Of a DNA stretch of 64,000 nucleotides, positions 328 through 47,880 are shown piece by piece; position 1 is the first letter of the stretch; each line of letters opens with the position of its first letter. Source of the stretch: an uncultured Anaerolineales bacterium (lineage in GTDB: Bacteria; Chloroflexota; Anaerolineae; Anaerolineales; UBA6663); assembly GCA_964608265.1 (NCBI GenBank), contig CAZSNP010000019.1:120-64119 (forward strand), given 5' to 3'. Position numbers and translations under genes: made by a program. The notes under the pieces are model-generated. The model was not told where the DNA came from. It saw only the letters and a list, made by a program, of their open reading frames with translations, and did no database searches.

Positions 328-1851
328 TCAGTCGGTCGCCGTAGAGGTTGCGCTCGAGGCCCGGTGCTCGGCTCGACCGGGATAGCTCCCGGCCCGGCGC
401 AGACCGGAATGCAAAACGGCGGCCGCCACCCGCATCCCGCCCAGCGTCACCCCGGCGGTGGATTGACCGGGGAAGATCGAATCGCCGACAAGCCAGAGGT
501 TGGGCACGCCGGTGGCCGGCCCGCGCACCGCGAACAACGAGGTCTGCGCGAAACCCCCGACCATGCCTTGCGGGCGACGGGTGTAGAACTCGAATGTGGC
601 CGGCGTCCCGGGGAGGCTCAAGCGAACCGCGCTGCGCAATCCGGGCAGCGCCCGCTCGGCGGCGAGCAGCAACCGCTCCGCGTAGTCGGCTTTCCGAGCC
701 TCGTACGCACCCTCGCTCAAGCCTCGCCACGCGGCAATGTTGGTGTGGGTCGAAAGAGTCGCAGCCCGCATCCCCGCCGGCGCGCGGATGGCATCCTTCG
801 CCGCCGACAGTGAGATGAAGACTGAATTGGCCTCGCCCAACGGCCGGGTTGCATCCAACACGATTTGATGATGGTCGGGGATGCCCGCCGGAAGTTGGGC
901 GGCGTCGAGGCCGATGTATAACGTGAACGCGCCCCACGTCGGCGGCCGGCGGCGCACTTCGCGGCGCAGACTCCCCGGGGCCGAGTCGCCCAGGGCCCCG
1001 GCCAGCGCCCACGGCGTGAGGTTGGCGACGAAGGCATCCCCTTCGACGCGCAGGCCTTTGCTCGTCAACGCGGCGACGGCGCGGCCGTTACGGATTTCAA
1101 TCTGCTCCACCGGCTGGCGATACAACACCTCACCGCCGTTGCGCCGGATCCATTCCACTAACGTCCCGGCCAGCGCGCCGATGCCACCGGACACGTGATT
1201 CACCCCGCGCCGAGGCAGGTCGAGCGCAGCGCTGCCGTACAGCGCGTTCGCCGAATCGCTGATCGTCTGCGCGGCGATGAGGAGTTGCGAGTCGAGGAAG
1301 GTTCTGAACAGCGGATCGAGCGCCGACTCGCCCGCGAGTTGGCGCACGCTGCGGAAGAGGTGCGGCGCGGCCCGCAGAGTCGCCGGCCGCAGCGCGCCGG
1401 CCAGCGCCACGAAATCGCGCGCCGACTCGGGCGGCCAGGGGAAATCCCGCGCGGCCAAATCCCAACTCGCGGAGGCGAGCTGCTCCTGGGCACGCCAGAA
1501 TGATTCGGCGTGTGGGAAGGCCGCGCGGCGCTCGTCGCGCCATCGGTCGGCGTTGGCCCATTGAGTGATGGTGCGATCGGGAAGATGCGTGACCCAGGCC
1601 GGGTCAACCGGCTCGACCGGCCAGGTGAGGTCGAGGAGCTCCGCGAGGCGTGCGTGCGGGCCGCCGGCGTTGAACCCACCGGCGAGCGTCGCGCCCGCCT
1701 CGAACCGATAGCCCCGATGATAGAACGTGCCCGCGCAGCCGCCGGGATAGACATGCGCTTCGAGCACCGTCACGCGCTGCCCGGCCTTGAGCAGCAGCGC
1801 GCCGGTCGTCAACCCGCCGATGCCGGCCCCGACGACGATGACGTTCTTCAT
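328..1851 (-). CDS. phytoene desaturase-family FAD oxidoreductase (CrtI/CrtD-like carotenoid desaturase)
   Basis: 507 aa. N-terminal dinucleotide fold MKNVIVVGAGIGGLTTGALL...VLEAH..PGG, with length and pattern of the CrtI family. Last gene of the carH-led minus-strand operon. Confidence 0.85.
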   Translation of the reverse strand: MKNVIVVGAGIGGLTTGALLLKAGQRVTVLEAHVYPGGCAGTFYHRGYRFEAGATLAGGFNAGGPHARLAELLDLTWPVEPVDPAWVTHLPDRTITQWANADRWRDERRAAFPHAESFWRAQEQLASASWDLAARDFPWPPESARDFVALAGALRPATLRAAPHLFRSVRQLAGESALDPLFRTFLDSQLLIAAQTISDSANALYGSAALDLPRRGVNHVSGGIGALAGTLVEWIRRNGGEVLYRQPVEQIEIRNGRAVAALTSKGLRVEGDAFVANLTPWALAGALGDSAPGSLRREVRRRPPTWGAFTLYIGLDAAQLPAGIPDHHQIVLDATRPLGEANSVFISLSAAKDAIRAPAGMRAATLSTHTNIAAWRGLSEGAYEARKADYAERLLLAAERALPGLRSAVRLSLPGTPATFEFYTRRPQGMVGGFAQTSLFAVRGPATGVPNLWLVGDSIFPGQSTAGVTLGGMRVAAAVLHSGLRRAGSYPGRAEHRASSATSTATD

Positions 1852-1860
1852 ACCCGTGGC

Positions 1861-2310
1861 TTACGCCTTCTCCAGCGCCCGCCGCGTGACCCAACTGCGA
1901 TACCAGAACAGGAGCCGCAGCCCCACCGGCGAGAAAAGAAGCCGCGCCAGAAGCCCTGCCAACCCGCGATGATGTTCATACGTGATATGTTCGGTGACGC
2001 GGGTCGTGCCGGCGCTCACGGCCGTGAAACGATGCGTGTGGCGCCAGAAGCGCAGTGGCCCATGCTGCTGCGTATCGGTGAAGCCGCTCGAGGGGTTGAC
2101 GTTCGAGTGCACCGCCACCCACCGAATCGGCAGCGGCCCCATCCACAGGGTGAAGTCGGCCACGGCCCCCTCGCCCATCGGATCCACCCGATGGAGCTGT
2201 ACGATCAACGGCGGCGGCGAGAGCCGTTGCAGGGCGCGCGCGTCACGGTGAAACTCGGCGACGGCGGCCAGCGGCGCGCGCACGGTGAACGAATAGGTGA
2301 ACGTCGTCAC
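1861..2310 (-). CDS. SRPBCC (START/polyketide-cyclase-like) family protein
   Basis: 149-aa ORF with an SRPBCC-like pattern. It is 9 nt from the crtI-like start and 2 nt from the upstream stop. Confidence 0.65.
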   Translation of the reverse strand: MTTFTYSFTVRAPLAAVAEFHRDARALQRLSPPPLIVQLHRVDPMGEGAVADFTLWMGPLPIRWVAVHSNVNPSSGFTDTQQHGPLRFWRHTHRFTAVSAGTTRVTEHITYEHHRGLAGLLARLLFSPVGLRLLFWYRSWVTRRALEKA

Positions 2311-2312
2311 AG

Positions 2313-2867
2313 TTACACCAGGGCAAGTTGCTGGACGGCGGCCAGGATTTCGGCGAAGTCGGGGTGATCGCCCGCGTATTCATCGTAATCGGCGAAGCGC
2401 ACCACGCCCTGCGCATCGATGACGAACACCCCGCCGAGCATGAAGGCGTTACCGGTGTTGCGGCCCTGAGTGACGCCCCGCGCCGCCGTGCGCGCGCTGG
2501 CCAACAGCACCTGCGGCCCCAACAATTGCATGGCATTGCCCGGCTTCAGGCCATACGCTCGATAGGCTTCGAGGGTTTGATTGCACAGGCAAGTGACGCT
2601 CGGCGCGTACTGGCCGCAGTAGCGTTCGGCATGCCTGGGTTCGCCGATGCCGATGGTCGCCAGGCTGAGGCCGGCCGCGCGCAATTCGTCTTTGTGCTGC
2701 TCCAACTGAGCAAGCCAATCGCGACAGTGCATTCAGCCGTAATGCCGCAGAAAACTGAGCAGCACCGGCCCGGAGCGCCACAGGTCGTTGATGGCATAGG
2801 GCTGGCCCTGCCGGTCGAGCACCGTCACCTGCGGCGCCAGATCGCCAACACTCAATCGTTCAGACAT
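2313..2867 (-). CDS. peroxiredoxin-like (AhpC/TSA, PRXL2-type) thioredoxin-fold protein with in-frame UGA at 2733-2735 (candidate selenocysteine, UxxC)
   Basis: Track ORFs 2733..2927 and 2313..2732 share one frame split only by TGA. The junction reads FLRHYG-U-MHCRDW, matching the family motif FLRH(F/Y)G-C-xx-C-R. AAGGAA RBS lies 7 nt before ATG 2867. A SECIS-like stem-loop lies at 2680-2723. Confidence 0.6.
2680..2723 (-). promoter_or_regulatory. SECIS-like two-tier stem-loop downstream of the in-frame UGA
   Basis: mRNA lower stem CGCGAUU/AAUUGCG (one G-U). Upper stem UUGCUC/GAGCAG (one U-G). Apical loop AGUUG. The lower stem begins 9 nt after the UGA and the loop 25 nt after it. Confidence 0.45.
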
Positions 2868-2926
2868 GGTTACATTCCTTTGCACCGCCTCCGCGGCGAG
2901 TTGCCTCGTCGCCCGGCGCGCATACA

Positions 2927-3901
2927 TCAGTTCAGCGCAGCGTGGGTCAAGTCACCCTGCATCATTCGCTCAATGGCGCTGACGATCCCGGTGGGTGGCC
3001 CGTCCAGCGCGAGGTAGCCGTAAGGCTCGAACCAGGCCCGGTTAGCGAAGGCCGGGCCGCCGACCACGACGCGCGGCGGCGGGAACGGAAAACGGGCCAG
3101 GATGGGAGGCAGGGCCGCCAGCGCCTGAGCCGCCTCGGGTCGCGTGGCGGTGAAGAGCAGCACGCGCGGCTGCAGGTGCCCGACGGCCTCATCCAATCGC
3201 TCCAGCTTCAGGTTTGGGCCGAGGTAGACCACCTCCCAGCCCCGCCAGCGCAGCATGACAACCAGCATCAACAATCCAAGCTCGTGATGCTCGCCCGGCG
3301 CGCAGGCGGCGATGATGACGCCCGACCGCGATGGCGCGCCAAATGCCGAGAACATACTCATCAAATGGCGCAAACAGAATTGAGTCGCGAAGTGCTCGGT
3401 GGCCACGGGCACCTCGCCGCGATGCCAACGTTCACCGAGATCAACCAGCGCCGGCCGGATAACGGCCTCAAGGACACGATCAATGGGATAGAGGCTGAAG
3501 GCCAGCCGGAGCGTCTCGGCGGCGGCCGCCTCGTCCAGCGCAAGCCACGCCTCGGCGCACCGCGCGCTCAGGTTTTCGGTGGAGGCCGGTTGCTGCGCGG
3601 CCGCTTCGCGCTTGAGGCTCAGCGCCGGATCGCTGCCACGCTCACGCAGGTTGGCCAGATGCTGAGCGGCCCGGCTGATGCTCATGCCGGCCTCGATCTG
3701 CGACTTCAGCCAGCGCAGGGTGCGAACATCGTATTCCGAGTACAGCCGATAACCCTGCACGCCGCGCTGCGGCGTCGGCAGGCCGTAGCGCCGCTCCCAG
3801 GCTCGCAGCGTCACCGGCAGGATGCCGACCAGATGCGAGACGGCTTTCACGTTGTATTTCGGCGAGAAATCAGGTTGATCGGGCGGTGGCGAAGGTAACA
3901 C
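2927..3901 (-). CDS. MerR-family, cobalamin-binding light-responsive regulator (CarH/LitR type), copy 1
   Basis: MerR HTH YNVKAVSHLVGILPVTLRAWERRYGLP. Wx9EH motif WHRGEVPVATEH. B12-binding ExHxxG EHHELG. GTG start lies 6 nt after a TATACT -10 box. Confidence 0.85.
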   Translation of the reverse strand: MLPSPPPDQPDFSPKYNVKAVSHLVGILPVTLRAWERRYGLPTPQRGVQGYRLYSEYDVRTLRWLKSQIEAGMSISRAAQHLANLRERGSDPALSLKREAAAQQPASTENLSARCAEAWLALDEAAAAETLRLAFSLYPIDRVLEAVIRPALVDLGERWHRGEVPVATEHFATQFCLRHLMSMFSAFGAPSRSGVIIAACAPGEHHELGLLMLVVMLRWRGWEVVYLGPNLKLERLDEAVGHLQPRVLLFTATRPEAAQALAALPPILARFPFPPPRVVVGGPAFANRAWFEPYGYLALDGPPTGIVSAIERMMQGDLTHAALN

Positions 3902-3907
3902 GCCAAC

Positions 3908-3949
3908 AGTATAGCGCCATGTACAAGGATTTGACCACCCGTTGTATAA
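3908..3949 (-). promoter_or_regulatory. carH-1 promoter with operator-like motif
   Basis: On the minus strand: TTATACAAC-GGG-TGGTCA (3932-3949), an 18-nt spacer, then TATACT (3908-3913), then 6 nt to GTG 3901. The TTATACAAC 9-mer recurs at 5003-5011. Confidence 0.4.
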
Positions 3950-3991
3950 GCTTGTTGCCTAAGGAGGATTTGGGGGAACGCGGTCGCGCGG

Positions 3992-4969
3992 CTACGCGCT
4001 CAAAACCTGGCGGACGCGCGCGCACGCTTCGATGAGGTTCTCACCCAGGAAAATTCCGGGCGTGCTTTCGCGCAGGGCCGGCTTGAGGTTGAACACCCGG
4101 CCGCCGTAACCAAACTTAGGTTTGGGCCGCAGGTTGGACAGCCCCTGGTTCACCCGCCGCAGCTCGCGCGCCGCCTGCTCCTGCATGGCGGTGAGGCAAA
4201 TCATGGCCGGGCGCTCCATGCGCGCGTATTCGAGCAGGTCTTCGATGTGCACGTCCTGCCCGAGAAACTCAACCCGGTACCCCTCGCGCCGCAGCAGCAG
4301 GGCCAGCATCAAACTGCTGATGTCGTGCAGTTCAGTCGGCGCGCAACCGATCATGATGCGCGGCGCGTTGCGCAGCATTGGCTGGGCGTGATACAGCGTC
4401 ATCAGCCGCCCGCGCAGATAGTTGCTGGCGAAGTGCTCGGTCGTAATGCGCAACTCGCCGCGCTGCCACGCATCCCCGACCGCCACCAGACAAGGGCCGA
4501 TCACATCGTTGCAGACCGTGCGCAAATCGCAGGTGGCGTAGGCCTCGTTGAGCGCCAGGCCGGCTGCGAGTTCATCGTGTGTGACCAGCGCCCGGTAAAG
4601 CCGCATGGCGTAGGTCGAGGGCGGCGTGGCGCTGGTCGCCGTCAGGGCGACTTTCTGCACTGTCGGGATCGGCGCCGGCCACGAGCCGGTGCGGCGCAGC
4701 TCCGACAGCTCAGTAGCCGCCGTGCTGATCGGCAGGCCGCTATCCACCCGCATCTTCAACCAGCGCAGCACGGCTACATCCCGCTCGGAGTAAAGGCGAT
4801 AGTTGCTCCGCGTGCGATGCGGGGTCAGGAGTTGATAGCGCCGCTCCCAGGCGCGCAGGGTGACGGGGCGGATACCGGTCTCAACGCAGACTGCTTTGAT
4901 GTTGAACCGGGGCGAATCAGACAAGGCTTCAATCGAAGCGGCTGGCGAGTTGGTGGAAAAATCGGCCAT
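3992..4969 (-). CDS. MerR-family, cobalamin-binding light-responsive regulator (CarH/LitR type), copy 2
   Basis: MerR HTH FNIKAVCVETGIRPVTLRAWERRYQLL. Wx9EH WQRGELRITTEH. B12 site ELHDIS (ExHxxS variant). Confidence 0.85.
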   Translation of the reverse strand: MADFSTNSPAASIEALSDSPRFNIKAVCVETGIRPVTLRAWERRYQLLTPHRTRSNYRLYSERDVAVLRWLKMRVDSGLPISTAATELSELRRTGSWPAPIPTVQKVALTATSATPPSTYAMRLYRALVTHDELAAGLALNEAYATCDLRTVCNDVIGPCLVAVGDAWQRGELRITTEHFASNYLRGRLMTLYHAQPMLRNAPRIMIGCAPTELHDISSLMLALLLRREGYRVEFLGQDVHIEDLLEYARMERPAMICLTAMQEQAARELRRVNQGLSNLRPKPKFGYGGRVFNLKPALRESTPGIFLGENLIEACARVRQVLSA

Positions 4970-5001: not shown

Positions 5002-5056
5002 ATTATACAACACCTTGACACAATGGTTTTACGGATGTGTGGCAGTCCGCTACAAT
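5002..5056. promoter_or_regulatory. divergent promoter/operator region between carH-2 and the GAF kinase
   Basis: Plus strand: TTATACAAC-ACC-TTGACA (5003-5020), then TTTACG (5028-5033), 17 nt, TACAAT (5051-5056), 10 nt, ATG 5067. The minus strand carries a perfect TATAAT (5002-5007) upstream of carH-2. Confidence 0.4.
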
Positions 5057-5066
5057 CACGTTACCC

Positions 5067-6704
5067 ATGACGCCGCCGACCAGCTTCGAAGCCACCGCCC
5101 TCACCGGCCTGCGCGAAATCGCGCGCGCGCTCTCGGCGGCGTGGGATGTGGACAGCACCCTCGACCTGATCGCCGAGAAGACCGCCCACGTGATGGGGGT
5201 GGACTCGTGCTCGATCTATTTGCTCGACGACGCGCGCGAAAGCCTGTGGCTGCGCGCCTCGACCGGGCTGGCCAAGAAGGCGCTCGGGCGCGGGTCGCTC
5301 AGGATGGGGCAGGGCCTCACCGGCTGGGCCGCGCAACACGGCCAACCGGTCGCCATCCGCGACGCGCAGGCTGATCCGCGTTTTCACTACGTCCCGTGGA
5401 CCGAGGAGCAGATCTTCCGCTCACTGCTGGCCGTGCCGCTCATCAACCGCGAGCGCGTCATCGGCGCGATGAATGTGCAGACCTTCGCGCTCCACGACTT
5501 CACCGGCGACGAAATCGAACTGGTCACCCTCATCAGCGACTTGGCCGCCGGCGCTCTTGATCGGGCCTTGCTGCACGACCGCATGAACCGGCAGATCAGC
5601 GAACTCACCACCGTGGCTCAGGTCAGCCAGACCGTCAACGCGCCGCTGTACCTGGATGAGATGCTGAGCCTGGTGGTGGAGATGGCGGCCAAACAACTGG
5701 GCACAGCGGCCTGCACCCTGCGTCTGCTCGATGAAGGCCAACACGAACTCATCGTGCGGGCGGCGTACAGCACCCTGCCCGGCTTCGCCCGCAAACCCGC
5801 CCTCAAAGCCGACGACGGCATCAGCGGCGCGGTCCTGCATCACCGCAAACCGCTGACAGTCGCCGATGTGCGCGCCGATGAGCGTTACCCCTTCCGCGAG
5901 GCGGCGCGACGCGAGGGACTGGTGTCGCTGGTGAGTGTGCCCCTCATCGTCCGCGACCGGGCCATCGGTGTGCTCAACGCCTACACCACCGAGCCGCGCA
6001 CGTTCAGCGCGGCTGAGATCGCGCTTTTCTCGACCCTGGCCAATCAAACTGCGCTGGCCATCGAGAACGCGCAACTGGCCACCCACGCCGCCGTGGTGCG
6101 CGAGATGCACCATCGGGTGCGGAACAACCTGCAGACCGTGGCGATGCTGCTGCGGATGCAGGCCGGCCAGAGCGCCGCGCTCAGCGCCGCCGAAGTGCTG
6201 CACATCGCCGTCAACCGCATCCAGAGTATCGCCGCCGTGCACGATGTGCTGGCGCACGAAGGCTACCGGCTCGTCAACGTAAAGGATGTCACCGAGCGCA
6301 TCGTGCGGTTGACGTCGCAACACATGATCCAGCCGGGCCTGGCCGTGCGGCTTTCGGTCGAGGGCGAGCCGATGGTGCTGCCGTCGCGCGTGGCCACCTC
6401 GCTGGCGCTCGTCATCAACGAACTGGTGCAGAACGCGCTCGAGCACGCCTTCGTCGGGCGCCAGCGCGGGACGGTCACGATCACGCTCGGCCACAGCCCG
6501 CAGTCGTACGTGATTGAAGTGGCCGACGACGGGGTGGGCCTGCCGGACGAGGCCAGCGCCAGCCTGGGCCTGGAGATCGTGGAGGCCCTGGTCCGCGACG
6601 ACCTGCATGGGCAACTGGAATTCACACGCGGCGAGCCGCAGGGCACCGTCGCCGTCATCCGCCTGCCGCGCAGCGACCTCGCTGCCGGTGAGTACGCCGA
6701 TTGA
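5067..6704 (+). CDS. cytoplasmic GAF-GAF sensor histidine kinase (HisKA_2 type, PdtaS-like)
   Basis: Two GAF-like segments. H-box MHHRVRNNLQTVAMLL. HATPase region LVINELVQNALEH...VADDGVGLP. No TM helix. Start trimmed from track 5037 to ATG 5067. Confidence 0.85.
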   Translation: MTPPTSFEATALTGLREIARALSAAWDVDSTLDLIAEKTAHVMGVDSCSIYLLDDARESLWLRASTGLAKKALGRGSLRMGQGLTGWAAQHGQPVAIRDAQADPRFHYVPWTEEQIFRSLLAVPLINRERVIGAMNVQTFALHDFTGDEIELVTLISDLAAGALDRALLHDRMNRQISELTTVAQVSQTVNAPLYLDEMLSLVVEMAAKQLGTAACTLRLLDEGQHELIVRAAYSTLPGFARKPALKADDGISGAVLHHRKPLTVADVRADERYPFREAARREGLVSLVSVPLIVRDRAIGVLNAYTTEPRTFSAAEIALFSTLANQTALAIENAQLATHAAVVREMHHRVRNNLQTVAMLLRMQAGQSAALSAAEVLHIAVNRIQSIAAVHDVLAHEGYRLVNVKDVTERIVRLTSQHMIQPGLAVRLSVEGEPMVLPSRVATSLALVINELVQNALEHAFVGRQRGTVTITLGHSPQSYVIEVADDGVGLPDEASASLGLEIVEALVRDDLHGQLEFTRGEPQGTVAVIRLPRSDLAAGEYAD

Positions 6705-6709
6705 AGTCA

Positions 6710-7282
6710 ATGATCCGCAAGCTGAGGGTGCTGATCGCCGACGACGAAGCCATCATCCGCCTCGGTCTGAAGACGATGCTGGCCGAGATGGGTCACGAGG
6801 CGCTGCTTGCCGCCAACGGGCGCGAGGCGCTCGACCTGGCCCGCACCGCCAACCCCGACCTCGCCATCCTCGACATCCGCATGCCGCTGACCGATGGCCT
6901 GCAGGCCGCGCGGGCCATCGCCAAGAATCATCCGATGCCGGTGTTGTTGCTCACGGCGTACAGCGAGCAGGATTTGATCGACAAAGCGGCCGGGTTGCCG
7001 ATTCAGGGCTACCTCATCAAGCCGGTGGATGAGGGCGACCTGCGCGCGGCCATCACGCTGGCGGTCGCGCGCCACACCGAGGCGCTGAACGCGGCGCAGA
7101 AGTTGGCCGAGTTGCAGGCGACGCTCGAAACCCGCAAGCTGCTCGACCGGGCCAAGGGCGTGTTGATGGCGCGCGGCCTGACCGAGCCGGAGGCGTACGC
7201 CTGGCTGCAGAAGCAGGCGCGCGACCAGCGGCTGAGCATGAAGGCCGTCGCCGAGGCGGTGCTGGCGGAGGAGAAACGATGA
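6710..7282 (+). CDS. response regulator with ANTAR RNA-binding output domain (PdtaR/AmiR/NasT type)
   Basis: REC domain (RVLIADDE...LAILDIRMP...LLTAY...KP). C-terminal ANTAR (LETRKLLDRAKGVLMARGLTEPEAYAWLQKQARDQRLSMKAVAEAV). TTG 6701, overlapping the kinase stop, is an alternative start. Confidence 0.85.
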   Translation: MIRKLRVLIADDEAIIRLGLKTMLAEMGHEALLAANGREALDLARTANPDLAILDIRMPLTDGLQAARAIAKNHPMPVLLLTAYSEQDLIDKAAGLPIQGYLIKPVDEGDLRAAITLAVARHTEALNAAQKLAELQATLETRKLLDRAKGVLMARGLTEPEAYAWLQKQARDQRLSMKAVAEAVLAEEKR

Positions 7283-12746: not shown

Positions 12747-13157
12747 TCATGCCGCCAGTTCATAGTCCCAGGTGATGTGCGCCACGCCGCGGATGGTGGC
12801 AGCCACCGCGCAGTATTTCTCCTCGGAGAGGCGGATCGCCTGCTCGACGCCGTGGGGCGTCAGCCCGGCGCCGCGCAGGGCGAAGTGCATGTGGATCTTG
12901 CGAAACGTCCACGGTGGCTCGGGGTCTTGCTCGCCACTGACAGCGATGTTCAGATCGCTGAGCGGCGTGCGCTTCTTGGCCAGAATCTCGACCACATCCA
13001 CCGCCGTACACGCACCCAGCGCGATCAACAGCATATCGGAGGGTTTGCACCCCACTCCGTTGGCCTCATCCTGCGTGCTGAGCACCACCGAGTGTTTGCT
13101 CGAATCGATGGCGACAAACTGTTGGTGCTGAATCCACTTGATGGTTGCGCTGGGCAT
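12747..13157 (-). CDS. OsmC-family peroxiredoxin-like protein
   Basis: OsmC pattern with both Cys (ALGACTAVD and EKYCAVAAT). GGGAG lies 8 nt before ATG 13157. Confidence 0.8.
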   Translation of the reverse strand: MPSATIKWIQHQQFVAIDSSKHSVVLSTQDEANGVGCKPSDMLLIALGACTAVDVVEILAKKRTPLSDLNIAVSGEQDPEPPWTFRKIHMHFALRGAGLTPHGVEQAIRLSEEKYCAVAATIRGVAHITWDYELAA

Positions 13158-13369
13158 AGGCCACACTCCCTGTTTGCTGATTGGAGGCGATTGTAGTCAA
13201 AAGGTCACGGCCCACCCGGATGACATTCGTCCTCACTTTGGCGCCGATTGTTAGGGACGTCTCTCACCCTGGGGCACCCGGTCAGCGGCTTGCCCGCGGC
13301 GGTGCCGATGAGCGAATTGGCTCGGGTCAATCCGCTCATTCGCTTCCCCAATCCGTTGCCCGATGATTG

Positions 13370-13397: not shown

Positions 13398-13470
13398 GCC
13401 CCTATCGTCTAGTGGACCAGGACGCGGCCCTCTCAAGGCCAAAACTGGGGTTCGAATCCCCATAGGGGCA
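13398..13470 (+). tRNA. tRNA-Glu (anticodon CUC)
   Basis: Cloverleaf by hand. Acceptor GCCCCTA/TAGGGGC. D arm GTCT-AGTGGACCA-GGAC. Anticodon stem CGGCC/GGCCA with loop CTCTCAA. 4-nt variable loop. T arm TGGGG-TTCGAAT-CCCCA. Discriminator A. CCA is not encoded. Confidence 0.9.
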
Positions 13471-13559
13471 CTCGCAACGCGAGCGACAGGTCGCCAGCCA
13501 CTGCGCGGCCTGTTTTCATTTGGCGCGGTAGAATCACCATCGGAGCGAGCTTTCACACA

Positions 13560-14225
13560 ATGAATCGTACTTGGACGATCTTGCTCAGTGGGTTGTTTGG
13601 TTTGCCGGTCGTTGCCGTGATGGCGTTCGTGGTTTTTCAGCCGGTGAAGGTGCTGCCGCGCATGCAGCTTGCGCCCGGCTTTGCCCTCACCGATCAGGAC
13701 GGCCAGGCCCTGACGAGCGAAGACCTGCGCGGCAACATCACGCTGTATTCCTTCACCTATTCGCACTGCCCGGCGGATTGTCCGCCGGCCACGGCGCGGC
13801 TGCTCGAGTTGCAACAACAGTTGGGCCAGCGACCCTCGGGCGGCGTGCCGGTGAAGCTGGTGACGGTGACGGTGGATGCCGAGCGCGACACCCCGCCGGT
13901 GCTGCGCGACTTCGGCGCGCAATTGGGCGCCGATTTCGACGGCTGGGCCTTCGCCACCGGCGACGAGACGCGGCTGCGGCGGGTGGTGGCCAACGGTTTC
14001 GGGTTGTTCTTCGCCCGCCGACCCGATGGCTCGTTCGAACTCGATCAGCGCATGTACCTGGTGGATAGCCTGGGCCTCATCCGCGCGGAATACTCCTTCT
14101 TTGTGCCCACCCTTGAGCGGCTGCTGCGCGATATCCGTCTATTGACCGAGGAAGCCGAGAACAGTCAGGGAATGGCGCGCTACGTGTACGAGGCCGCACA
14201 CCTCTTCGCCTGCTACGCCCCATGA
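13560..14225 (+). CDS. SCO1/SenC-family copper chaperone / thiol-disulfide oxidoreductase
   Basis: N-terminal TM helix. CxxxC motif YSFTYSHCPADCP. Confidence 0.8.
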   Translation: MNRTWTILLSGLFGLPVVAVMAFVVFQPVKVLPRMQLAPGFALTDQDGQALTSEDLRGNITLYSFTYSHCPADCPPATARLLELQQQLGQRPSGGVPVKLVTVTVDAERDTPPVLRDFGAQLGADFDGWAFATGDETRLRRVVANGFGLFFARRPDGSFELDQRMYLVDSLGLIRAEYSFFVPTLERLLRDIRLLTEEAENSQGMARYVYEAAHLFACYAP

Positions 14226-14830
14226 AACGCCTGGCCTTTCTCTCGGCTGGGCTGTTGGCCGGGCTGGGCCTGGCCCTGGCTGCCGTGCTGCTCGGGCCGC
14301 GCCTGTTCGGCGCACCATTCGAACTGCGCGGCATGGCGCTCGACGGCTCCAGGCCTGCGCCCAACTTCGCCTTCACCGAGGCAGCCGGCCGGCGCGTGCA
14401 GCTCAGCGACTTCCGCGACAAAGTCGTGGCCGTGTACTTCGGGTACACCTTCTGCCCGGATGTCTGCCCGACGACGCTGGTCGATCTCAAGCGGGCGGTC
14501 GAGGCGCTCGGCGCGCAGGCCGAGGCGGTGCAGGTGATCTTCATCTCGGTTGACCCGGAACGCGACACCCCGCAGCGCGCGATGGATTACGCCCGCGCCT
14601 TCAACCCCGACTTCATCGGCCTGAGCGGCACACTCGATGAGGTGGCCTCGGCGGCCACAATGTTCGGCGTTTACTTTGAGAAGAAGGCCAGCGCCAGCGC
14701 CGCCGGCTATCTGGTCGATCACACCTCCGTCGTCACCGTCGTCGATCGGGCCGGACGCATCCGGGTGCTCTGGCCGTTCGGATTCAAGAGCGAAGATATG
14801 ACGGCCGACCTTCAGACGTTGCTGCGGTAG
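14222..14830 (+). CDS. SCO1/SenC-family protein, second copy
   Basis: Signal/TM helix. [15 protein letters not shown] motif. ATGA overlap with the upstream copy. Confidence 0.8.
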
Positions 14831-21301: not shown

Positions 21302-21837
21302 TGTTTCGGTCGTTGGAGTTCGATCATCACATCCCACGCACCGGCGTTGAACTTTCGCTCCACTTTGAAGCCGCTGTGTTGGATGAAGCGCAGGATGGCT
21401 TCGTTGTTGACGTGGATGGTGGCGGTGAAGCGGCGCACGCCGTGCGCGAGCGCATACTCGACGAGACGGGACACCAGCACCTTGCCCAGCCCGCGTCGTT
21501 GATAGCCGTCCTCGACCACCACCGCAGCCTCGCCGGCGGTGGGGTTGTCCGCCTCGGTCAGGCCGTAGCGCGCCACGGCAATGATGGCCTCGTCGGCGTC
21601 GGCCCCGACGGTGGCGGCGATGGCGACTCGGGTCACGCCGTCCACATTGCATAGCCAGCGCGCCTCTTCATCGCTGATGGTGGTGCGGTATTCGAGCAGG
21701 CGATAAAAGATGCTTTCCGGCGACAAGCGGTAGAAGAAGGCTTTGATACGCTCGGTGTCGTCGGGGCGCAAAAACCGCAGCCGCACGGGTGTGCCATCGC
21801 GCAGCGAAACGGTGGCCGGTGGAAAATGCGTGTGCAT
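21298..21837 (-). CDS. GNAT-family N-acetyltransferase
   Basis: 179 aa from ATG 21837. Acetyl-CoA motif QRRGLGKVLV. The upstream part of the track ORF is shadow sequence. Confidence 0.8.
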   Translation of the reverse strand: MHTHFPPATVSLRDGTPVRLRFLRPDDTERIKAFFYRLSPESIFYRLLEYRTTISDEEARWLCNVDGVTRVAIAATVGADADEAIIAVARYGLTEADNPTAGEAAVVVEDGYQRRGLGKVLVSRLVEYALAHGVRRFTATIHVNNEAILRFIQHSGFKVERKFNAGAWDVMIELQRPKQ

Positions 21838-21990
21838 TGCGGCGATTATAGCCTCACCGCCAGTCACTTTCCCATGCGCCCCCAGCGTCCGGGCATAGCA
21901 ATTTCTCCATTCTGCATGACTTTTATCACTACCCGCCTCGGCCCCGTCCGCGCACACTTGGGCCGTAACCATGATCTGACGGAGGTGGCT

Positions 21991-22890
21991 ATGTTTCGCA
22001 ACATCCTTGTTCCGCTGGATGGCTCGGCGCTGTCGGAACGCGCCCTGGCCCCGGCGCTGAAAATCGCCGAACTCGAGGGCAGCCGGGTGACGTTGCTGCG
22101 CACGCCGGTAGTTGATATCGCCGTGCTGCCGTCGGTGGAAGTTTTCGGAAACTACAGCCTGCGCGGCCTGGACGAGGCGACGAGCCGCGCGCGCCGCGAC
22201 GCGCGGGAATATCTCGAGACTCTGCGCAAGTCTCAGGGCACGACCGGCCTCGAACTGCGGCCGGAGGTGCAGGATGGCGACCCGGCTGAGGCCATCCTCA
22301 CCGCCGCGCAGGAGAAGCACGCCGACCTGATCGCGATGTCGACACACGGCTACTCGGGCGTCACCCGCTGGATCATGGGCAGCGTCACCGAGCGCGTGTT
22401 GGCGCACGCTCCCTGCCCGGTGCTCGTCCTCCGCTCGGAGAAGCCGTTCTCGCATCTGCTCATCACCCTCGACGGCTCGGCCCTGTCTGAGAAGGCGTTA
22501 GCCCCGGCCTTTGAGATCGCCTCGGCCTACAACATCCCCGTGACGCTGTTGCGCGTCATCAACCCGGTGCCGGCGTGGCATGTCGCCGAGCTGAACGAGG
22601 TCGAGCAAGGGCTTGGCTATCGGTTGCACGAGGAGCTGGAGGCAGAGGCCGCGAACTATCTGCGCCAGCAACTGGCGGCGTACCGGTATCCGCAACTCCG
22701 GGTCGAGGTGGCGGTGCGCGCCGGCCCGCCGGCCGCCACCATCCTCGATTACGCGCAGACGCACGGCGTGGATGTGGTGGCGATGGCGACCCACGGGCGC
22801 ACCGGCACGCAGAAGTGGCTGTACGGCAGCGTCACCGAGAAGGTGCTGCGGCAAAGCCACGACTTCGCGATGCTGGTGGTGCGGGCGTAG
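21991..22890 (+). CDS. tandem-domain universal stress protein
   Basis: Two USP domains (ILVPLDGS... and LLITLDGS..., each ending G.SG..R...GSV). GGAGGTGG RBS before ATG 21991. Confidence 0.85.
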   Translation: MFRNILVPLDGSALSERALAPALKIAELEGSRVTLLRTPVVDIAVLPSVEVFGNYSLRGLDEATSRARRDAREYLETLRKSQGTTGLELRPEVQDGDPAEAILTAAQEKHADLIAMSTHGYSGVTRWIMGSVTERVLAHAPCPVLVLRSEKPFSHLLITLDGSALSEKALAPAFEIASAYNIPVTLLRVINPVPAWHVAELNEVEQGLGYRLHEELEAEAANYLRQQLAAYRYPQLRVEVAVRAGPPAATILDYAQTHGVDVVAMATHGRTGTQKWLYGSVTEKVLRQSHDFAMLVVRA

Positions 22891-37688: not shown

Positions 37689-37720
37689 GCGCCTCCCGAT
37701 GCGGCGGCGCACCACTTTTT
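37686..37720 (+). terminator. intrinsic terminator immediately upstream of the globin RBS
   Basis: GGTGCGCC (37686-37693) pairs with GGCGCACC (37706-37713), with a 12-nt loop, followed by ACTTTTTG. About 35 nt before ATG 37755. Confidence 0.65.
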
Positions 37721-37754
37721 GTATCCTGTCAACACCACAGGAAAGGAAAGCCGA

Positions 37755-38162
37755 ATGAACACCGACACCATCACACTGATCCGCCGGAGCTGGGCCAAAG
37801 TCGTCCCCATCGCCCCGCAGGCGGCGGCGCTGTTCTATCAAAACCTGTTCGCTGCTGATCCGGCGTTGCGCCCGCTCTTCAAGAGCGATATGACCGAGCA
37901 GGGCCACAAGCTGACGCAGATGCTCGGCGCGGCGGTGAGCAAGCTGGACGATTTGGAGGCGCTCCTGCCCGTGCTGCAAGCGCTGGCCCGCCGCCACGTC
38001 GGTTACGGCGTGCAGGCCGAGCATTACGCCACCGTCGGCGCGGCGCTGCTCAAGACTCTCGAGCAGGGCCTGGGCGACGACTTCACCCCGCCGGTGCGCG
38101 AGGCCTGGGCGGCGGTTTACGGCCTCGTCGCCGACGTGATGATTCAGGCCTCGCACAACTAA
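37755..38162 (+). CDS. single-domain globin (flavohaemoglobin/Vgb-like 3-on-3 globin)
   Basis: ITLIRRSWAKV...AALFYQNLFAADPALRPLF...LARRHVGYGVQAEHYATVGAALLKTL aligns by eye with FHb-type globin domains. AGGAAAGGAAAG RBS. Confidence 0.8.
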   Translation: MNTDTITLIRRSWAKVVPIAPQAAALFYQNLFAADPALRPLFKSDMTEQGHKLTQMLGAAVSKLDDLEALLPVLQALARRHVGYGVQAEHYATVGAALLKTLEQGLGDDFTPPVREAWAAVYGLVADVMIQASHN

Positions 38163-46514: not shown

Positions 46515-46928
46515 CTACTTTGCTCCGTAGCCCGGGCCGCCTTGATAGAAATCGTAATTGGGCTGAATATCGGCCCGCAGATCCACGACCTCACCGCCCG
46601 CGAGTGTCAGGGTTGTTTCGAGCACGACCGGCCCGGTCTTGCTCTCACCCTCGTAATGCTCGGTGGCGCGTTCGGCAAAATTCGGGTCGCGCGGGGCGTT
46701 GAGCCGCTGGCCGGCCTTGGCCTCATGCGCGCCGGGCACCTCATCCTCGGGGAAGATGGCCTCGTACGGGCACTCGGGCACGCAGGCGCCACAGTCAATG
46801 CACGTCGCCGGATCAATATACATCCACGGCCACTCGTTCTCGGGCTTGCCGGGCACAATGCACTCCACCGGGCACACCTCGATACAACCGCCGTCGCGCA
46901 GGCACAAGCTGGTGATGATATGAGTCAT
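46515..46928 (-). CDS. 4Fe-4S ferredoxin-family protein with C-terminal extension
   Basis: CIEVCP and CIDCGACVPECP cluster motifs. Confidence 0.85.
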   Translation of the reverse strand: MTHIITSLCLRDGGCIEVCPVECIVPGKPENEWPWMYIDPATCIDCGACVPECPYEAIFPEDEVPGAHEAKAGQRLNAPRDPNFAERATEHYEGESKTGPVVLETTLTLAGGEVVDLRADIQPNYDFYQGGPGYGAK

Positions 46929-46962
46929 GGTTATCTCCGAAGATGGGTGGTGGGGTCAGGCG

Positions 46963-47577
46963 CTATTTGGTCGCCGCGGCATAAATTTCGGCGACGGCTT
47001 TCCAATTGACGACATTCCACCAGGCCTTGAGGTAGTCGGGCCGGCGGTTTTGATACTTGAGGTAGTAAGCGTGCTCCCACACATCGCAGCCCATGATGGG
47101 CGTGATGCCCTCCATCATGGGATTGTCCTGGTTGGCGGTCGAGGTGATGGCTAGCCTGCCGTCCTTGCCGAGCACCAGCCAGGCCCAACCGCTGCCGAAG
47201 CGCCCTACCCCGGCCGCCTCGAACTTCGCTTTGAATTCATCGAAGGAGCCAAAGGCGGCCCTGATGGCGTCGCCCAGCGCGCCGGTCGGCTCACCGCCCG
47301 CGTTCGGGGCCATCACATTCCAGAACAGCGTGTGATTGACGTGGCCGCCGCCGTTGTTGCGCACCACCGTGCGGATGCCCTCGGGCACGGCGTTGAGGTC
47401 TTTGATGAGCGCTTCCGCCGATTTGCCCTGCAGTTCGGGCGCGCTTTCGAGGGCTTTGTTGAGGTTGGTCACGTACGCATTGTGATGCTTGCCGTGGTGA
47501 ATCTGCATCGTTTGAGTATCGATGTGCGGCTCTAAGGCATCATGCGCATAAGGCAAAGCGGGCAGTTCGTGTGCCAT
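46963..47577 (-). CDS. Fe/Mn superoxide dismutase
   Basis: [32 protein letters not shown]... and DVWEHAYYL motifs. Confidence 0.95.
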
Positions 47578-47614
47578 TGAGGTCTCCCGTGGAGTCAGGA
47601 CTGAGGTTGACGCG

Positions 47615-47643
47615 ATTGTATGCTTGGCATATGCCTTTGTCAA
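47615..47643 (-). promoter_or_regulatory. SOD promoter with palindrome in the spacer
   Basis: Minus strand TTGACA (47638-47643), 17 nt, TACAAT (47615-47620). The perfect palindrome GGCATATGCC (47626-47635) sits in the spacer. Confidence 0.6.
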
Positions 47644-47880
47644 GCAAAATGGCCCTGGTGTGCATCGCATTTGGCTATCGTCACCATGCGGTCACGGTGC
47701 CGAGACCCGCGCGCCGTGGACGCCATCGTGTGCACGCACGAGTTGTCAGGCAAAGGCCGGCGCGGCCTTCGAGACCGCGCCAGTCTGCCCACCGGCCGAC
47801 AACCCTGGCGTGCACACGCCATCGCAATTTCGTCGTCAGCTAAGGTACAATCCCGCCACCCCAGTTTCCTGAGGAGCAGT

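Follow-up and report, generated by a model that had tools for sequence, protein, structure and literature searches.

Proteins that resemble peroxiredoxins or thioredoxins (Prx-like/Trx-like) and carry selenocysteine (Sec, U) in a UxxC redox motif are among the commonest predicted bacterial selenoproteins (PMC2398784, PMC9312934, PMC13188914). The catalogued forms, including the GOS 'Prx-like 1-3' groups, have a thioredoxin fold, a match to Pfam PF00578, Sec in the place of the first Cys of CxxC, an intragenic Sec insertion sequence (SECIS) closely downstream of the UGA, plentiful Cys homologues and a function known by prediction (PMC13188914, PMC9312934, PMC2398784). An AhpC/TSA selenoprotein (pfam13911 / cd02970) from an Olavius symbiont of the Desulfobacterota also has Sec first in its redox motif, as UxxS with no resolving Cys (PMC9312934, PMC13188914). 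Selenoprotein L (SelL) of aquatic eukaryotes and marine bacteria has a Prx-like fold and a UxxU diselenide motif (PMC2398784), and PRXL2B (FAM213B) is a eukaryotic Cys enzyme. Here a gene with affinities to these proteins was analysed in a 64,000-nucleotide stretch of an uncultured Anaerolineales genome (assembly GCA_964608265.1, contig CAZSNP010000019.1, positions 120 to 64,119 of the forward strand), hereafter called the window. Positions 2867..2313 of its minus strand most probably form one SelB/SECIS-recoded UxxC selenoprotein gene of the AhpC-TSA_2 / PRXL2 / 'SelL-related' family; from the comparative evidence given below we put the probability of this reading at about 0.9.

A single minus-strand reading frame extends from 2927 to 2313 with one internal stop, a TGA at 2735..2733, and the two open reading frames (ORFs) 2927..2736 and 2732..2313 share this frame and are interrupted by nothing else. 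Across the stop the translation is ...PVLLSFLRHYG-*-MHCRDWLAQLEQH..., or in wider context ...GPVLLSFLRHYG-*-MHCRDWLAQLEQH.... The G+C content of third codon positions is 0.75 and 0.79 in the two halves against a G+C content of 0.66 for the window, and is gene-like. On the frame, on the junction (with U at the stop) and on the gene-like codon bias of both halves, this analysis agreed with the original prediction, which had been made from the window sequence. It differed in the upstream extent of the gene, which had been taken to 2927: the start is probably the ATG at 2867, since it is preceded at 7 nt by a Shine-Dalgarno-like AAGGA (2875..2879, minus strand, read from the sequence) and is the codon from which the N-termini of orthologues (M-x-K-R-L-x-V-G-D...) align. 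The 20 additional residues from the ATG at 2927 are not conserved in orthologues, so the ORF tracks over-extend the N-terminal piece. That upstream ATG (2927-2925), in frame with the selenoprotein, overlaps the stop codon (TGA, 2929-2927) of the preceding gene, called CarH-like A below. Judged by translation, profile matches and orthologue N-termini, the complete gene (2313..2867, minus strand) would encode 184 amino acids followed by a TAA stop. The UGA (2733..2735, minus strand) is codon 45, read as Sec from the comparison of aligned codons, and a TGT codon at 2724..2726 (minus strand) encodes Cys48, identified as the resolving Cys of the UxxC motif by its invariance across Sec and Cys forms and by alignment with the CxxC of PRXL2B. 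The active site of the read-through product is Sec45-Met-His-Cys48. Of the 61 gene-like ORFs in the window, about half terminate in TGA; the codon acts as a normal stop in the rest of the window, and UGA is therefore not reassigned in this organism. A scan of the whole window for other gene pairs joined through an in-frame TGA returned only ordinary neighbouring genes. Identical sequence was present on eight independently assembled contigs, which excludes a sequencing error.

Orthologous loci were collected in one scan of species-representative genomes, which yielded 40 loci; 39 were labelled as Chloroflexota (Anaerolineales, Ardenticatenaceae, Promineifilaceae, Aggregatilineales and others) and one, L036, as "Bacteroidetes bacterium". 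The codon following FLRH(F/Y)G was TGA in 31 loci and TGC or TGT in eight, the remaining locus being truncated; no other codon was found at the aligned position among the 40 loci. TGA was also what the second metagenomic lineage, L007, carried there, and TGC or TGT occurred additionally in two tandem paralogues (L046 and L047). The Cys48 codon was invariant in every Sec and Cys form, and uninterrupted Cys homologues aligned across the UGA site without gaps. Within the close clade (synonymous divergence, dS, about 1), the ratio of nonsynonymous to synonymous divergence (dN/dS) was approximately 0.24 over the 40 codons upstream of the UGA and 0.15 over the 60 codons downstream. Purifying selection on both flanks indicates that both halves are translated and constrained, which excludes a pseudogene. 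The sequence-level checks that were carried out on the original prediction, an alignment of orthologues and a look for relaxed constraint beyond the stop among them, favoured Sec: both UGA- and Cys-containing homologues were recovered with conservation on both sides, and constraint downstream of the stop was not relaxed.

Three representatives of much more distant subfamilies were looked up singly, and TGA was found at this codon in all of them (L051, L053 and L052, the last at a contig start). These come from unrelated metagenomes (L051:5863-6405; L053:126-716; L052:1-405) and have the motifs FVRHFG-U-MFCREQ and WLRHYG-U-VFCRQH. Because the TGA and a downstream hairpin both recur in L051-L053, the Sec form seems to reach far outside the close clade. 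The Cys forms make up a clade of eight genomes (L036, L038, L039, L040, L042, L044, L049 and L050; match at about 3001), mostly labelled Aggregatilineales, with the motif FLRHFG-C-IHCR(H/N)RLAELE and without the hairpin. In a neighbour-joining tree (no support values) this clade was nested within the Sec forms, beside the Sec-bearing L035 and L043, which suggests that Sec gave way to Cys once and that the hairpin was lost with it. In the tandem pairs (L046:998-1994 and L047:2406-3399) a Cys paralogue (MRHFG-C-IFCREWL) stands directly upstream of a Sec paralogue (FLRH(F/Y)G-U-MFCREWL); each pair adjoins CarH, SRPBCC and CrtI genes, and only the Sec copy has a hairpin.

The SECIS-like hairpin occupies 2696..2715 (minus strand) and was delimited by an RNAalifold consensus, covariation and synonymous-codon constraint. 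It consists of the 5' stem UUGCUC (2713-2708), the apical loop AGUUG (2707-2703), which begins 25 nt after the UGA, and the 3' stem GAGCAG (2702-2697), with a possible closing pair G2715-C2696 across a bulged C2714. For the consensus, 32 distinct Sec-form sequences were aligned from the UGA to +66 and folded with RNAalifold, which paired columns 23-28 with 34-39 around a 5-nt loop of AGUUG or AGUUA. Pairing was counted over seven pairs, including the possible G21-C40 closing pair across the bulge. The hairpin was present in all 32 sequences, with 96% of cells paired, and compensatory changes were seen at three of the seven pairs in 21 cells (UA to GU, GC and AU; GC to AU; UA to CG). In 500 column shuffles the observed percentage paired, the number of cells changed on both sides and the covariation score were never reached, and sliding the 3' partner as a control gave 27-50% pairing. 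L046 and L047 have the stem in a shifted register (7-8 bp, rich in G+C) with AGUU still at the apex, and in the distant L051-L053 a hairpin whose loop is AGUU or GGU stands at a similar distance from the UGA. In Cys forms (n = 10) the hairpin is absent: the same columns were 34% paired, and folding energies were 0 to -4 kcal/mol as against -4.8 to -17.5 kcal/mol for Sec forms. Codon choice in the hairpin is constrained as well. Synonymous codon identity at its Ala-Gln-Leu-Glu was 0.81, 1.0, 0.65 and 1.0, compared with 0.2-0.73 at other codons conserved in amino acid, the values above 0.6 being confined to the Gly and Phe codons that shortly precede the UGA; GCU encodes the hairpin Ala in 27 of 30 sequences, and Ala codons elsewhere are mostly GCC or GCG.

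The upper stem, its loop and the 25-nt spacing had been named in the original prediction and proved to be conserved in all Sec forms. The lower stem that it had proposed beneath them (CGCGAUU/AAUUGCG) is present in the window sequence but is not conserved; it was 46% paired in orthologues, no better than shuffled or slid controls, and was rejected as part of the element. A small hairpin that RNAalifold placed upstream, in alignment columns 11-22, had no compensatory changes and was likewise rejected. The SECIS of Escherichia coli fdhF, with G23 and U24 in its loop, is similar in lying directly 3' of the UGA within the ORF, in its apical G/U and in a possible bulge below the upper stem. It differs in position, the loop G-U here being at +30/+31 from the U of the UGA rather than +23/+24, and is unrelated in sequence; for the present hairpin SelB binding is predicted. 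An apical loop bearing G/U and a spacing of this order between UGA and loop are typical of bacterial SECIS elements, and +30/+31 is within the range that bacterial SECIS predictors accept.

Profile searches were made with the read-through product, with C in place of U. It scored 134 bits against the NCBIfam model NF040769, "SelL-related redox protein", passing the curated cutoff of 120, and 51.1 bits (E = 2e-13) against Pfam PF13911, AhpC-TSA_2, for which the cutoff is 27; AhpC-TSA (PF00578) and Redoxin were further Pfam matches. The redox motif G-[C/U]-x-x-C-R, in the form FLRH(F/Y)G-U/C-x-x-C-R, occurred in all 42 sequences. The nearest solved structure by sequence was PRXL2B, prostamide/prostaglandin F synthase (PDB 9us9, E = 8.6e-7), whose LRRFG-C-VV-C-R aligns with LRHYG-U-MH-C-R such that its CxxC falls on the UxxC, in line with the PRXL2-type family first proposed for the gene. 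A thioredoxin fold may be inferred for the product from these profile and PDB sequence matches. Identity to PRXL2B is roughly 25-30%, and despite the likeness sequence comparison gave no evidence of a prostaglandin-like substrate. A typical peroxiredoxin (1-Cys, 2-Cys or BCP) was considered and rejected: the product fell far below the cutoffs of the NCBIfam peroxidase equivalogs, and the peroxidatic PxxxT/SxxC motif is absent, the sequence before Sec (L-S-F-L-R-H-Y-G) lacking both Pro and Thr where the motif requires them. On these grounds the protein is classed by sequence as a CxxC-type Prx-like oxidoreductase and not a classical peroxiredoxin.

The same comparisons place the protein among the selenoproteins described at the outset. 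It shares with the catalogued Prx-like UxxC forms every feature listed for them, the thioredoxin fold by prediction and the PF00578 match included, and differs in that its best family is PF13911 / NF040769 rather than PF00578 (compared by description). It belongs to the same Pfam family (AhpC-TSA_2 / PRX_like2) as the Olavius symbiont protein, from which it is set apart by its UxxC motif, its invariant Cys48 and its origin in the Chloroflexota. To SelL it is related through its own match to the 'SelL-related' model NF040769, a predicted Prx-like fold and a redox motif at the same place. Selenoprotein L proper was rejected as an assignment, as it requires UxxU; the motif here is U-M-H-C, with Sec at the first position only and an invariant Cys codon at the second.

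Several findings weigh against recoding by Sec. No selA, selB, selD or tRNA-Sec gene was found in the 64-kb window or in related loci totalling about 300 kb. ARAGORN and Rfam found no tRNA-Sec in the window or in 43 loci; the only tRNA in the window is tRNA-Glu(CUC) at 13398-13471 (plus strand). SelA, SelB and SelD were absent from the Pfam annotation of 40 window ORFs between 12.7 and 64 kb and, for the first 12.7 kb, from the precomputed Pfam hits of the identical contig L001. A tblastn search with E. coli SelA, SelB and SelD sequences gave a single GTPase match, in L022, which was rejected as SelB when NCBIfam identified it as release factor 3. This prfC gene (L022:1434-3041, minus strand) adjoins the Sec-form gene on its downstream side and is encoded by the other strand, an adjacency that is probably coincidental. 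As to the hairpin, it is short (6-7 bp), its loop G-U lies farther from the UGA than in fdhF, and an Rfam search of 2500-2950 (with an E-value threshold) returned only noise and no family match. The minimum free energy of the window sequence was -15.8 kcal/mol, and shuffled sequences gave -17.5 +/- 2.7 (z = 0.61); because the single-sequence fold is no better than shuffles, the significance of the hairpin comes from comparison with relatives only.

Some of these findings would suit a UGA read without SelB, in which the hairpin promotes near-cognate decoding (by Trp, Cys or Arg, for example) and a selenium-free full-length protein is made: the Sec machinery was not seen in the window or related loci, and the hairpin, besides being short, has no match among curated RNA families. 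Against this, the UGA coincides exactly with the first, catalytic Cys, at which function is preserved only by Sec or Cys, and across the 40 genomes the codon there is only TGA or TGY and never TGG or CGA, the apical loop with its G/U and the distance from UGA to loop fit a bacterial SECIS, and SelB is documented in Anaerolineales (PMC4959059). Decoding of this kind is accordingly regarded as very improbable. Published work favours the trait in this lineage: the Sec-specific elongation factor SelB has been reported in Anaerolineales single-cell genomes and in Anaerolinea thermophila, and some of these have Sec-type formate dehydrogenases (PMC4959059); a tRNASec of Chloroflexi has been described (PMC5389517), Chloroflexi selenoproteins have been catalogued (PMC1794560) and 46-49 selenoprotein genes are listed for some Chloroflexota (PMC13326102).

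The gene callers' own view is that two polypeptides (44 and 139 amino acids) are made, which would involve termination and re-initiation at an overlapping UGA-AUG and a thioredoxin fold split between two chains. An AUG does follow the UGA directly in the window and in nine relatives, an arrangement typical of translational coupling. It fails as a general account because 22 of the 32 Sec sequences have another codon after the UGA (AUA, AUU, AUC, CUG, GUA, GUG, CCC or CCG), and most of these, CCC and CCG among them, are unable to start translation. The split would also delete the catalytic residue from a protein whose Cys homologues align gap-free, and it leaves the hairpin without a role; we consider it very improbable. 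A recent nonsense mutation, or an error of sequencing or assembly, has in its favour the presence of the stop codon and nothing further. With the same sequence in eight independent assemblies, a TGA retained among lineages whose synonymous sites are saturated, dN/dS on either flank far below 1 and conserved synteny, this explanation is refuted and its probability is negligible. The features by which bacterial selenoproteins are ordinarily recognised are all found at this locus, namely a Sec/Cys pair, conservation on both sides of the codon and a covarying hairpin confined to the UGA forms, and it is on these that SelB/SECIS-dependent insertion of Sec at codon 45 is proposed. The identification of the gene as encoding a UxxC selenoprotein, the central claim of the original prediction, agrees with all three lines of evidence.

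Under Sec insertion, SelB carrying GTP and Sec-tRNASec would bind the mRNA hairpin at 2715..2696 and deliver Sec at the UGA (2735..2733) in competition with RF2. The first active-site Cys would thereby be replaced by Sec, giving Sec45-Met-His-Cys48. By analogy with the family, the enzyme would cycle between the selenolate/thiol and selenenylsulfide (Se-S) states and may act as a thiol-dependent reductase or a peroxidase-like enzyme.

In public data the gene is consistently cut at the UGA, as had been expected of standard pipelines. In a collection of 5.8 billion proteins, all 28 close homologues were 138-143 amino acids long and started right after the UGA, beginning M(H/F)CR(D/E)WLAQLE; gene callers start at the codon that follows the UGA, and only the C-terminal piece is represented. 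Four of the 28 are named NCBI records and bear the name of an 'AhpC/TSA family' or a 'redoxin domain-containing' protein. When 1.84 billion cluster representatives were searched with a profile, 2103 relatives were returned, of which the best 150 were inspected: 32 were full-length CxxC proteins, and most of the other approximately 110 were truncated N-terminally at or just after the UGA site.

The gene lies within a tight run of genes on the minus strand. Upstream are two CarH-type paralogues, about 39% identical to each other: CarH-like B (MerR and B12-binding domains, 3992..4969; assigned by Pfam on L001, which is the window's own sequence, and by synteny), followed after 90 nt by CarH-like A (MerR helix-turn-helix and B12-binding domains, 2927..3901; assigned by Pfam on the identical L001 gene), which is separated from the selenoprotein gene by 59 nt. 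Downstream, an SRPBCC / Polyketide_cyc2-like gene (1861..2310; a weak Pfam hit on the L001 gene) has its GTG start 2 nt past the selenoprotein stop, and after a further 9 nt a CrtI-like phytoene desaturase gene (Amino_oxidase / NAD_binding_8, 328..1851) ends the co-oriented run. The SRPBCC neighbour is kept in 10 related loci besides L001, CarH-like A has the same upstream position in L007, L012-L015, L021 and L047, and in the closest clade (about 12 loci: L007, L011-L017, L021, L046 and L047) the genes still follow one another as CarH, Prx, SRPBCC, CrtI.

From this gene order, light-induced co-expression with carotenoid synthesis under B12/CarH control, and a role against photo-oxidative damage, are suggested by synteny; for the closest clade only, the photo-oxidative role is a reasonable inference. 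The carotenoid operon led by CarH, as originally proposed, is real and syntenic in that clade but is absent around the distant Sec forms. The latter observation counts against the wider proposal, in that the more distant Sec forms do not adjoin CarH and CarH control is deduced from gene order only; some of their neighbours are connected with light (a CrtI fragment together with a photolyase in L028, CarH in L027), as is TspO beside the Cys form of L036, and others are not. A fuller scenario is accordingly tentative and, in our estimate, rather doubtful as a whole: the selenoenzyme would be controlled by the CarH/B12 photoreceptor and induced together with carotenoid synthesis to prevent or mend photo-oxidative damage (lipid or carotenoid peroxides, for example), possibly acting with the SRPBCC protein as a lipid-binding partner, and Sec would be ancestral in Anaerolineae, with one clade having changed to Cys and lost its SECIS.

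Other genes of the surroundings were recorded. Divergent from the CarH pair (2927-4969, minus strand), a GAF-GAF-HisKA_2 kinase and a Response_reg-ANTAR regulator are encoded at 5037-7282 (plus strand), an arrangement kept in L007 and several relatives (e.g. L011, L015 and L016). Beside the Cys form of L036, a TspO/MBR gene is adjacent upstream. Further redox genes of the window are an OsmC-like gene (12747-13166), two adjacent SCO1/SenC thioredoxin-fold genes (13560-14830), a globin gene (37719-38162) and genes for a ferredoxin and an Fe/Mn superoxide dismutase (46515-47670), together with a double Usp gene (21826-22890); none of these contains an in-frame TGA.

The enzyme type is already known, and NCBI maintains a model for the protein's own family (NF040769). 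The finding is correct and useful for annotation, and would be no surprise to a specialist; it changes neither what is known of Sec decoding nor the kinds of protein known to use Sec. Its operon context is modestly interesting. The selenoprotein catalogues (PMC13188914, PMC9312934, PMC2398784) make no mention of a CarH/carotenoid operon, and a full-text literature search for CarH, carotenoid and selenoprotein together gave only two bioinformatics surveys of trace elements. The annotation error recurs across public data, with loss of the catalytic residue and of the first 44 residues, and a corrected annotation would restore a redox enzyme and flag these Anaerolineae as selenium users. The nested, hairpin-less Cys clade offers a clean natural comparison of Sec with Cys. 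The conserved gene order links the selenoprotein to a light-responsive carotenoid module, and, if the proposed control is true, the locus would be a natural system in which to see what selenium buys the cell under light stress.

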